A stretch of 64,000 nucleotides of DNA from a virus. The translations under genes were made by a program, and so were the position numbers. Below the pieces are notes generated by a model, which was not told the origin of the DNA, ran no database searches, and worked only from the letters and a program-made list of their open reading frames with translations. Of this stretch, positions 18,687 to 20,650 are shown one piece after another (positions within the stretch are counted from its first letter, which is position 1; each line of letters opens with the position of its first letter). The stretch lies in IMG/VR virus record IMGVR_UViG_3300029243_000160, positions 81,209-145,208 of that record. The stretch is one strand, 5' to 3'.

Positions 18687-19034
18687 TTATTTACCATATT
18701 GGGTATCGAAATCTTTGATTTCTTTGAGAATATCTTCTGTACTGTTATCGCTTGCATCATACCATTCCATTTTTTTCAGGTACTTGGCAAGCCAGCTATC
18801 ATACAGGGAATTTGCAACAATGCCGACCTCACTGAAAGAATCTTTTCCTTCTTCAATGACAAAAACAAGCTCTTTGTCTGTATCTGATACTTCCTTGAAG
18901 TTGCAATTTTTGAAAGCATCTCTTACAGTTTTGTATATTGCGTTTAGGTCATGCTGTTGAAACCGTAGTACCTTATCATCATCAATCACAACTGTGATTT
19001 TGTATAAGTATTTCATACTATCTCTGCCTTTCAT
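18687..19034 (-). CDS. Hypothetical protein
   Basis: ATGA overlap with the NADAR stop at 19034; an alternative start is ATG19016. No recognisable domain. Confidence 0.55.
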   Translation of the reverse strand: MKGRDSMKYLYKITVVIDDDKVLRFQQHDLNAIYKTVRDAFKNCNFKEVSDTDKELVFVIEEGKDSFSEVGIVANSLYDSWLAKYLKKMEWYDASDNSTEDILKEIKDFDTQYGK

Positions 19035-19462
19035 TCGCCACTTTTGATTTCTGCTCGTATCTGCATCAAAATGAAGCCCAGTCGATTCGCCCCAGAACCG
19101 TTCACTGTTCCCCAAATCCTATCGCCCCATGTGTTGCCTTCTTCCAAATACGCATCACCTGTGGCAAGCAATTTGTCTGCAAGTTCTGTGTTTTGCGTGA
19201 ACTTTGCTCTGACGATTTCTTCCATGATTCTGACTTTGACAGCTTCCCAATCCTTCCGCAAATTTACTTTCCTACCAAGCTTCTTTGCTTCGGTTGGATT
19301 CAGTTTCGTGAACTGAATTTTTTCAGAATCGCTCGTGCATTTCTGTGCCTGAAAAGCTGCTTCGTTGTTGGTGTAAGTCAGTTGCTTATATGTTACCGGA
19401 CATTCGTAGAAATTACTCAAAAAGAAAAAATCTCCACGAAATTGTTTGATTGCTTGTTCCAT
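19031..19462 (-). CDS. NADAR (YbiA/DUF1768) family ADP-ribose-processing hydrolase
   Basis: FLSNFY...EAAFQAQK...W...KFTQN...LLATG...WG...G.N.LG..LM..R aligns along its full length to E. coli YbiA from memory. SD GAGGTGA. Confidence 0.9.
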   Translation of the reverse strand: MEQAIKQFRGDFFFLSNFYECPVTYKQLTYTNNEAAFQAQKCTSDSEKIQFTKLNPTEAKKLGRKVNLRKDWEAVKVRIMEEIVRAKFTQNTELADKLLATGDAYLEEGNTWGDRIWGTVNGSGANRLGFILMQIRAEIKSGE

Positions 19463-19482
19463 AAGGATTCACCTCATTTCCG

Positions 19483-19929
19483 TTACAAGTATTTCTTATA
19501 TATTTTTTCACAAGCGTTTGGATAAGATGTTTCATGCAACGGATTATATAACTTCATCATCAGCTCTGCCGGAACTTTTTGGCTTATGGTTTTAGAAGGA
19601 ATATTATACTTCCATTGCAACATAACATAAACGTGTGCAACCCACTCCAGCAGGATATTGTCATATTCTGTATTATCAGCCTTCGGCTTGCATCTTGTAA
19701 AGTCAATAGAGTGCAGCAATTGTTTATAGCCCTTGTTTAACGCACTCCAATTGCCTTTATCCATTTTCTTTCGTATTTCTGAATGTTGCATATACTCATC
19801 AATCATCGAACACAAACTGTACTGTTCGATTTCATTAAGCTTCAAAAATAGCAGTGTGTGAACATCTTCAACATCTTCCAGATACGAGGAATCATACGCT
19901 TTATTATCTGTCATCAATTTCAAACTCAT
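19483..19929 (-). CDS. DUF3791-like helical partner protein
   Basis: Start ATG19929 gives MSLKLMTDN and overlaps the upstream stop by 26 nt, which suggests translational coupling. The family call rests on its usual pairing with DUF3990 and is a recollection, not a search result. Confidence 0.6.
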   Translation of the reverse strand: MSLKLMTDNKAYDSSYLEDVEDVHTLLFLKLNEIEQYSLCSMIDEYMQHSEIRKKMDKGNWSALNKGYKQLLHSIDFTRCKPKADNTEYDNILLEWVAHVYVMLQWKYNIPSKTISQKVPAELMMKLYNPLHETSYPNACEKIYKKYL

Positions 19930-20650
19930 TCCTTTCGTTAGCACGTTCTTCCTGTAAATAGCACCCATATTCCTTGTTGTATTCATATTGAGTGCTGATT
20001 ACATCTTTCACAGTCAAACCAGCTGGTTTGAACCCATCAATCTGAATGGCGTACTCTCTGTTGTGCAAGAATTTTCCGACTTCTCTTCTCGCCTTTGCGT
20101 CAGCTTCACCATAATGAGAATCTTTGTTCATTGAGACATTTTCATAGTCTTCAAAACAAATCCGGTCAAATGCTTTTTCACTTTTTATAAACACCTGTTG
20201 CCCAAGATTGCCATTACGGAACATTCTATCAACTTCGTCAACAGACAACTGATTTCGCAAAAAAGACTTCACTACATTCATGTAGCTGTCGTCTGCACGA
20301 TACCCAATTATTACATCGGCTTTTGAAGTGTCAATCTTATACATTTCCACAAGTTTGTCTGCAACTGCCTGTGTAAATTCGTCTGATGCACCTCGATGAT
20401 TCGTTACCTCTGCAATCCATGCGAGTGTTCCGTGTTCATCAAGATTCAGGACGTTCAGTCCATCAAGGTCTATCGAATATTGATTACACACCGCAGATTT
20501 ATCAGAGCCGTTTACCCAAGCCCATTCTCTTGCTTTTTCAATATCCTCTGTTGTGTAAAATCCGCTTCCGTAGTCGTTATCCTCTTTTCCAACTCCGTAC
20601 AGTGGTTTCTTTAAGATAACATCACTTCCGTGATATAAAATCTTTCTCAT
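19904..20650 (-). CDS. DUF3990-like protein with a PARP-like H-Y ART signature
   Basis: The N-terminus ILYHGS-(24 aa)-GSGFYTT mirrors PARP HGS...G.GIYFA. SD AAAGGA. 248 aa. Confidence 0.8.
   Translation of the reverse strand: MRKILYHGSDVILKKPLYGVGKEDNDYGSGFYTTEDIEKAREWAWVNGSDKSAVCNQYSIDLDGLNVLNLDEHGTLAWIAEVTNHRGASDEFTQAVADKLVEMYKIDTSKADVIIGYRADDSYMNVVKSFLRNQLSVDEVDRMFRNGNLGQQVFIKSEKAFDRICFEDYENVSMNKDSHYGEADAKARREVGKFLHNREYAIQIDGFKPAGLTVKDVISTQYEYNKEYGCYLQEERANERNEFEIDDR

Follow-up and report, generated by a model that had tools for sequence, protein, structure and literature searches.

A DUF3990-MID-NADAR gene trio of the PDC-M42 type as a candidate reversible ADP-ribosylation cassette on an integrative element

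The window analysed here is the 64,000-nucleotide (nt) stretch at positions 81,209 to 145,208 of IMG/VR virus record IMGVR_UViG_3300029243_000160. Its positions 19031-20650 are taken up by three minus-strand open reading frames (ORFs), which encode a DUF3990 protein assigned to the ADP-ribosyltransferase (ART) superfamily, then a small all-helical partner that we call MID, and then a NADAR enzyme. The best explanation of our results is that ART, MID and NADAR form one self-contained conflict cassette, of the type catalogued as PDC-M42, that is carried as cargo on an integrative element. We suggest, with a probability of roughly 0.6, that this is a toxin-antitoxin or abortive-infection-type cassette in which a nucleobase is the target of the ART, MID holds the ART in check by binding it, and NADAR removes the mark. 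What we observed, and what this reading builds on, are the family memberships of the proteins, conserved active-site residues, a tight operon, recurrent co-occurrence of the genes and a gene fusion.

Layout and recurrence of the gene trio

A candidate reversible ADP-ribosylation module had been proposed for this region from its sequence and translated reading frames (the original prediction), and all three ORFs lie where it placed them on the minus strand, with a full-length NADAR gene, its active site intact, directly after the middle gene. The ART gene (19904..20650, minus strand) encodes 248 amino acids (aa) and has a GAAAGGA ribosome-binding site 6 nt upstream of its ATG. The start of the MID gene (19483..19929, minus strand) overlaps the end of the ART gene; the predicted overlap of 26 nt holds if the ATG at 19929 is used, giving a protein of 148 aa, but shrinks to 11 nt with the ATG at 19914, the start in public gene calls, which gives 143 aa. 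A spacer of 20 nt, containing a GAGGTG Shine-Dalgarno sequence 7 nt before the next ATG, separates MID from the NADAR gene (19031..19462, minus strand; 143 aa), and the NADAR stop codon overlaps the ATG of a further, 115-aa ORF (ATGA). Along the minus strand, a strong terminator-like hairpin is first met at 17323-17299, past a gene for a VapD-fusion protein. Inside the ART gene there is also a near-consensus sigma-70-like promoter sequence (20334-20307, minus strand; TTGACA, 16 nt, TG-AATAAT; 11/12 matches), a pattern match that could allow MID and NADAR to be expressed separately from the ART.

The products match the PDC-M42A, PDC-M42B and PDC-M42C models of PADLOC-DB v2 in the order A-B-C, on the same strand and with near full-length coverage: the DUF3990 protein at E 7.6e-45 (profile 5-201/215), MID at E 1.6e-16 (profile 2-135/138) and NADAR at E 2.7e-14. 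PDC-M42 is one of 145 phage defence candidates that were collected because their genes lie within known defence systems (Payne et al., bioRxiv 10.1101/2024.01.29.577857). The supplement to that preprint lists it as FAM_00403>>FAM_03189>>FAM_00360, with 72 RefSeq instances, and its first family recurs in PDC-M10 and PDC-M13. The cassette type is already catalogued, as an uncharacterised candidate, and the trio is not new to databases; our literature search found no paper naming PDC-M42 or characterising DUF3990. The linkage of DUF3990 with NADAR is therefore uncharacterised in the experimental sense in which the original prediction said so, but it has been recorded as PDC-M42, and two other pairings of an ART with a NADAR, DarT1-NADAR and YarT-YbiA, are known.

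The trio is a real unit, with an adjacency far beyond chance, and the cassette recurs in many gut bacteria. A survey of gene neighbourhoods, which the original prediction had proposed as a check, found the three genes co-conserved in about ten unrelated genomic contexts, in agreement with the three-gene PDC-M42 model. Near-identical copies of the window's element carry the trio, and a related element (65-67% identity) has it in the same place, between the signal peptidase gene and variable cargo. Other triads occupy unrelated chromosomal sites: L002, with ABC transporter genes as neighbours; L001, with HipA-like kinases and an AAA_14 ATPase; L109, with an IS200 transposase; L008, with thyA and dfr, where the order is NADAR-ART-MID; L073, with a penicillin-binding protein gene and upp; and L111 and L113. 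The L073 triad is distant from that of the window (ART 38%, MID 27% and NADAR 31% identical) and its NADAR belongs to another subfamily, such that NADAR has been recruited from two subfamilies among the triads. The divergences of the triad members correlate, with r between 0.77 and 0.93. These sequence comparisons lend only partial support to a NADAR lineage that is dedicated to the cassette and co-evolves with it: divergences correlate among triads, yet the closest homologues of the window's NADAR lie outside them.

Two further observations tie NADAR to the short, MID-type partner. DUF3990 genes are accompanied either by short partners that lack a helix-turn-helix (HTH) domain or by long partners that have one, and NADAR is present in 8 of 25 short-partner clusters and in none of 44 long-partner clusters (Fisher p 1.3e-4, for clusters that were dereplicated at 90% ART identity, required to have enough flanking sequence, and are not phylogenetically independent). 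In addition, a deep search with MID recovered natural MID-NADAR fusions (P0312, P0318 and P0389), whose C-terminal halves match NADAR at E 1e-44 to 1e-48. At L181 (3241-5002) the P0312 fusion starts 4 nt after a DUF3990 gene; the product of that gene shares 48% identity with the window ART and keeps every motif intact. The same search gave two MID fusions with degenerate NADAR-like halves (P0319 and P0324), and at L178 a MID-NADAR fusion lies between a non-DUF3990 ORF upstream and a NERD-domain gene downstream. At L073 (5881-9317, Coprobacillus) a DUF3990 pair of the long, HTH-bearing kind is followed in tandem by the distant triad of ART, short MID and NADAR.

We considered whether the adjacency could be an accident of cargo accumulation by int/xis, bringing together three unrelated functions. 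The region is a cargo hot spot, and neighbouring genes do differ between related elements, as between the window and L083. However, about ten unrelated contexts, the cluster counts, the fusions and the existing three-gene PADLOC model effectively refute this explanation, and correlated divergence and translational coupling speak against it as well; we regard it as extremely improbable. Their conservation as a unit makes a reversible ADP-ribosylation conflict module the reading that fits the cluster best.

The three proteins and the proposed mechanism

By sequence, the 248-aa protein is a member of the ART superfamily. It matches Pfam DUF3990 (PF13151) at E 3.5e-36 and 124.6 bits (gathering cut-off 32.2), with residues 4-164 corresponding to profile positions 2-150 of 152, and Pfam assigns DUF3990 to its ART clan (PMC7955679). 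The Pfam ART-PolyVal profile is also matched by 17 of 38 aligned homologues, and Diphtheria_C weakly by three. An AlphaFold model (mean predicted local distance difference test score, pLDDT, 88.9) was compared with solved structures using Foldseek; the nearest in the PDB were a diphtheria-toxin homologue, PARP4, PARP1, a Vibrio toxin-antitoxin toxin (8gug) and Arr, each a weak match (best E 1e-2, template-modelling score about 0.3). The match lists for the model are nevertheless mostly ARTs, namely diphtheria toxin-like toxin, PARP1/2/4, Arr and phage ART-PolyVal, and among viral models they include phage polyvalent-protein ARTs and giant-virus PARPs, with an unnamed viral protein (A0A0H3UZB3) at the top at E 1e-7. 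Searches of PDB sequences with the ART, both as a single sequence and as a profile, gave no meaningful match, so the fold-level evidence for an ART comes from Foldseek alone. Together, the Pfam match, the clan and the ART-rich lists uphold the original assignment of the protein to DUF3990 and the ART superfamily.

The predicted H-G-S and G-x-G-[IF]-Y motifs are present, as ILYHGS at residues 4-9 and GSGFYTT at residues 28-34; the 24 aa said to separate them is the gap between H7 and Y32, while the motifs themselves are 18 residues apart. Alignment by hhalign with the diphtheria toxin A fragment, whose sequence was entered by hand, pairs H7 with H21, Y32 with Y54 and W43, a second aromatic residue, with Y65 (E 4.9e-4). 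Among 119 unique family members the invariant elements are H-G-[ST] (H7), G-x-G-F-Y (Y32), Y-R-A-D-D-S-Y, which includes the acidic motif RADDSY at R118-Y123, and G-x-Q (Q152). Since Q152 lies on a predicted strand (151-155) where PARP and diphtheria toxin hold their catalytic Glu, the catalytic triad is most likely H-Y-Q, and the third catalytic residue in the model is probably Gln152. Membership in an H-Y-E clade, as first proposed, is thus borne out for the His and the Tyr but probably not for a Glu; the clade definition, H-Y-[E/D/Q], allows Gln. We predict that the DUF3990 protein is an intracellular mono-ADP-ribosyltransferase of this diphtheria toxin/PARP clade. The family is large (>1,400 clusters in one search) and is found on plasmids, on integrative elements and in Rhs toxins of type VI secretion systems (T6SS). 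In some of these Rhs proteins DUF3990 forms the C-terminal toxin tip (PMC4524185, PMC10763514, PMC12165300), a use that supports a toxic activity.

The NADAR gene product matches Pfam NADAR (PF08719) at E 3.3e-28 and 99.4 bits (cut-off 35.1) and TIGR02464 at 76.4 bits, and it aligns with E. coli YbiA (2b3w) at E 3.5e-20 and with the P. nicotianae NADAR (8bau) at E 4e-11. The latter was crystallised with ADP-ribose, and its reported contacts E43, K50, R79, W89, R93, E125, D130 and W133 correspond to E34, K41, R64, W72, K76, E108, D114 and W117, respectively, in the window protein. By this comparison all ADP-ribose-binding and catalytic residues are kept, and the enzyme looks active. The Glu at the position of E125 (E108 here) marks the YbiA subfamily, and with 143 aa the protein has no extension of the fold, like the YbiA antitoxin of YarT. 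Characterised NADARs remove guanine-linked ADP-ribose from DNA and RNA, some of them the cytosine-linked form as well, but not ADP-ribose at phosphate ends or the 2'-OH, and they act as antitoxins to the ARTs DarT1 and YarT (PMC11543638, PMC11125620). The general statement in the original prediction, that NADARs remove guanine-linked ADP-ribose and serve as ART antitoxins, agrees with these two cases, and by analogy the window NADAR is predicted to hydrolyse base-linked ADP-ribose and so erase the mark of the ART. An 83%-identical NADAR is widespread (221 blocks of the collection); at L167-L170 (2351-6296) a gene for a 342-aa unknown protein comes first, followed by one for a 185-aa GNAT-like protein that overlaps the NADAR start, and then by DUF3825 and Fic genes, with a GmrSD gene upstream in one of these loci. 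The 342-aa and 185-aa neighbours are unrelated to ART and MID.

MID matched no Pfam or NCBIfam family. The original prediction saw in it a DUF3791-like protein and thus the classic DUF3990/DUF3791 pairing. This did not hold: there was no match to Pfam DUF3791 (PF12668, cut-off 25 bits) even at E<=1, hhalign against a bona fide 75-aa DUF3791 protein of Clostridium tetani was not significant, and the classical pair, as found on C. tetani plasmids, has its DUF3791 gene (75 aa) upstream of DUF3990. Membership of MID in DUF3791 is ruled out on these grounds. Sequence comparison instead makes MID a separate helical family whose homology to the N-terminal domain of the long partners is clear (hhalign probability 99%, E 3.3e-18). 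The long partners have about 215 aa and overlap the 3' end of most DUF3990 genes. All 30 that were analysed end in an XRE-type HTH; weak matches to MqsA or Xre antitoxins occur for some, and sub-threshold DUF3791 matches for four of the 30 (best E 0.012). Of 80 reference-genome DUF3990 loci, 79 have another ORF that starts within or shortly after the 3' end of the ART gene. Clustered at 50% identity, the MID family itself has 307 representatives in a set of 1.84 billion proteins, with the conserved motifs AYDxxYL, MDxGNWSALNKGxKQL, WxxDIYVxLQWKYN and YxPLHETSxxNAC. Its model (pLDDT 93.4) is all helical and has no neighbour among solved structures (best E 1.2), so the fold gives no functional hint.

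The distribution of the partners relative to the ART is asymmetric. Where an intact ART gene has sequence available downstream of it, a partner can be detected at every locus except L012; MID, in contrast, is also found where the ART is missing or broken. Orphan MID genes, 66% identical to that of the window, are common in human-gut metagenome contigs (L091-L105; e.g. L096 5004-5456); neither a DUF3990 nor a NADAR gene lies within 5 kb of them, and they adjoin an apparent C-terminal gene fragment. MID also lies beside fragmented ART genes at L110, L133, L141, L145 and L146. At L174-L176 (3452-4441) a MID and NADAR pair, the NADAR 96% identical to that of the window, is accompanied by about 35 codons of the ART C-terminus, downstream of a gene for a 239-aa HTH_3 protein; here the ART appears to have been deleted and both partners kept. 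An ART that does damage unless MID is present, and a MID that does none by itself, would produce this pattern of partner survival. The near-constant presence of a partner, the persistence of MID or of MID with NADAR after the ART is lost, and the XRE HTH of the long partners are indirect support, from sequence, for a toxin-antitoxin character.

From this we infer a toxicity, a target, a contact between MID and the ART, and a biological role, as follows. Using NAD+, the DUF3990 ART would mark a molecule of the cell or of an invader and thereby arrest growth; a base of DNA or RNA, guanine or cytosine, is the likeliest target. MID, whose long relatives bear an XRE DNA-binding domain like type II antitoxins, would bind and restrain the ART, and is predicted to be an ART-binding neutraliser or adaptor. 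NADAR would hydrolyse the base-linked ADP-ribose that the ART makes. MID and NADAR would then amount to a split version of DarG, which has a toxin-binding domain and a hydrolase. The cassette may serve to stabilise the element, to defend against phage, or both. In the HTH-type relatives the DNA-binding domain of the partner presumably provides transcriptional autoregulation instead; these relatives have no eraser.

Several observations weigh against this mechanism, some of which concern the chemistry of the ART. The individual Foldseek matches to solved ARTs are weak. The choice of Q152 follows the predicted strand order, and D120 and D121 are alternatives in the model. Gln at the position of the catalytic Glu weakens catalysis in classical ARTs. 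Our literature search found no DUF3990 protein shown to bind NAD+ or transfer ADP-ribose, and as regards defence and toxicity PDC-M42 has the status of a candidate. Proteins with the YbiA-type fold have, in addition, a housekeeping role as N-glycosidases of riboflavin intermediates (PMC11543638). In an alternative reading, DUF3990 is an enzyme that consumes NAD+ or makes an ADP-ribose derivative (a NADase, signal synthase or small-molecule modifier), or a non-catalytic sensor of NAD+ or ADP-ribose, and NADAR processes a small-molecule product. The Gln at the third catalytic position, the small-molecule activity of YbiA-type NADARs together with the TIGR02464 match of the window protein, and the lack of any experimental datum on DUF3990 in the literature would all fit such a scheme. 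We nevertheless consider it improbable: the H-Y-[E/D/Q] clade definition includes Gln, the invariant RADDSY could supply a catalytic acid, use as an Rhs toxin tip fits a macromolecular target, and every NADAR assayed to date works on ADP-ribose attached to the bases of nucleic acids.

Other observations that count against the proposed mechanism concern the place of NADAR in it. No NADAR accompanies 17 of the 25 short-partner clusters or any of the 44 long-partner clusters, and it is therefore dispensable for the core pair of DUF3990 and partner. The nearest homologues of the window NADAR (83-87% identity) stand in non-ART settings, alone or by unrelated genes such as those for GNAT-like, DUF3825 and Fic proteins, so this NADAR lineage is not dedicated to the cassette. 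The functional unit might then be the DUF3990-MID pair only, with NADAR as independent cargo, for example a shield against DarT1-like defences or competitor ART toxins that acts on the marks of other enzymes. Phages do carry orphan NADAR-type antitoxins against DarTG1 (PMC11825919), and MID with NADAR, or fused to it, exists without an ART (L174-176, L178). We think this unlikely, since NADAR is found beside DUF3990-MID in many unrelated contexts, from two subfamilies and in two gene orders, never beside HTH-type DUF3990 pairs, and in one case fused to MID directly behind the ART gene (L181). Moreover, the orphan MID-NADAR arrangements are equally well explained by loss of the toxin, as the 35-aa ART remnant in L174 illustrates.

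The toxin-antitoxin reading, with NADAR as the eraser, can also be taken further. DUF3990 as a whole might be a family of base ADP-ribosyltransferases with an H-Y-Q site, MID a new toxin-binding fold and NADAR the eraser of a "split DarG", with orphan MID-NADAR pairs and fusions serving as counter-defence against DUF3990 immunity in recipient cells. We offer this broader scheme tentatively, as a possibility that we would not yet favour.

The integrative element and its other cargo

Genes for a Tn916-type Int (15579-16862) and Xis (16985-17182), both identified by profile match, lie downstream of the cassette. The original prediction had the cassette next to int/xis; such genes are indeed nearby, but about 2 kb away and with two genes between. 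One of these is the 115-aa ORF (18687-19034, minus strand; no Pfam family, weak PHROG match). It is found only in near-identical copies of the element and is absent from every other triad, which rules it out as a cassette member; on its distribution it is probably separate cargo. The other encodes the 361-aa VapD-fusion protein (17599-18684, minus strand; NCBIfam VapD E 3.4e-33, weak PADLOC Cas2 matches), in which the first ~100 residues are VapD-family (Cas2-like) and are followed by an unannotated C-terminal region of ~250 aa with an HEYYGH motif; it is the last gene before the hairpin.

On the other side of the cassette are genes for signal peptidase I (20668-21177) and a NikA-like relaxosome protein (21187-21726), and further upstream (22708-26580, minus strand) is cargo that L081, a near-identical copy, has in full: genes for an alpha/beta hydrolase, an RNase H-like protein, a DnaJ-domain protein and an AAA ATPase. 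A homologous AAA ATPase at an unrelated locus (L085) has an intein-like (LAGLIDADG/Hom_end) insertion. Cargo varies between related elements, with the VapD fusion and the 115-aa protein in the window and Metallophos_2 and Fic in L083.

A phage origin of the element is ruled out: a PHROGs search of the element gave no structural or lysis matches, and 2.9 million viral contigs contain next to no members of the MID family, the one match being the same element. Coding strand, GC skew and AT skew all switch at about 15000-15600; the plus strand carries the genes as far as 14986, the minus strand those from the integrase gene at 15579 to at least 64000. An end of the element just beyond the integrase gene is consistent with this switch. 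No tRNA gene was found in the window. A 709-aa protein with BspA-type leucine-rich repeats and a C-terminal type I dockerin (51970-54099, minus strand) may be encoded inside the same minus-strand gene block as the element, and by its domains hints at a cellulosome-bearing Clostridia host (Ruminococcus-like).

Related systems and the meaning of the cassette

PDC-M42 has the same three families in the same order as the window trio. It was put forward as a guilt-by-embedding candidate without an assigned mechanism, whereas the window copy is cargo of an integrative element and does not lie in a BREX, DISARM or restriction-modification system. PDC-M10 is probably the pair of DUF3990 with a long XRE-HTH partner, which shares the ART family, the gene overlap and a partner N-terminus homologous to MID; the long partners differ in their C-terminal HTH, which MID lacks, and in never having a NADAR neighbour (0/44). 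PDC-M13 is probably the classical DUF3791-DUF3990 pair, with the same ART family but a 75-aa DUF3791 protein, encoded upstream, that is not detectably MID-like. The T6SS Rhs tips (PMC4524185, PMC10763514) contain the same Pfam domain as a toxic payload, with a downstream immunity gene; they are secreted tips of large proteins of Proteobacteria, whereas the window protein is free-standing, cytoplasmic and on a Firmicute element.

The closest characterised relatives are DarT1-NADAR and YarT-YbiA. In the former (DarTG1, PMC11543638) an ART toxin of the H-Y-E clade is likewise encoded beside a NADAR that reverses guanine ADP-ribosylation, and the system is mobile and defence-linked. DarT, however, is DUF4433/BC4486, and none of 38 DUF3990 family members had a Pfam match to DarT (DUF4433) at E<=1. 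The DarT1-linked NADARs are Asp-type (BC4488) with an N-terminal DNA-binding extension, in contrast to the bare Glu-type YbiA domain of 143 aa in the window, and DarTG1 has no third component, where the window cassette has MID. Membership of the cassette in DarTG1 is ruled out by the missing DarT match and by the Glu-type NADAR without extension. YarT-YbiA of myxobacteria (PMC11125620) pairs a small non-DarT ART, related to Rhs tips, with a bare YbiA-type NADAR that rescues its toxicity. It differs in that YarT belongs to the Tox-ART-HYD1 subclade and not to DUF3990, the YbiA gene comes first, a helical third protein is absent, and the system is known from a few myxobacteria only. The window ART has no Pfam match to HYD1, and assignment to YarT-YbiA fails on the toxin half; the antitoxin half, a bare YbiA-type NADAR, is present.

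DarT2-DarG (DarTG2) offers a parallel of another kind. DarG joins an ADP-ribose hydrolase to a toxin-binding domain, functions that here would be split between MID and NADAR, or fused as in P0312, P0318 and P0389. The DarG hydrolase is a macrodomain that acts on thymidine-linked ADP-ribose, whereas the eraser of the window is a NADAR. We found no relation of MID to the DarG C-terminal domain, and MID has no similarity to any solved structure.

Mechanistically, the cluster is a variant of known ART/NADAR systems. No new principle is involved: an ART toxin with a NADAR antitoxin is established, and the gene trio had already been catalogued. Its value lies in the family that it makes accessible. 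DUF3990 is a large family of the ART clan, and the cassette is a concrete, testable entry point to its substrate and activity. The linked NADAR narrows the likely product of the ART to base-linked ADP-ribose, on guanine or cytosine, and the existence of MID-NADAR fusions leads one to expect a physical connection among all three proteins. The HTH-type and NADAR-type variants are a natural comparison of two ways to restrain the same toxin. If our reading is true, DUF3990 would be the third ART family in reversible nucleic-acid ADP-ribosylation systems, after DarT and YarT, and the cassette would provide a mechanism for three PADLOC candidates, M42 and by extension M10 and M13.

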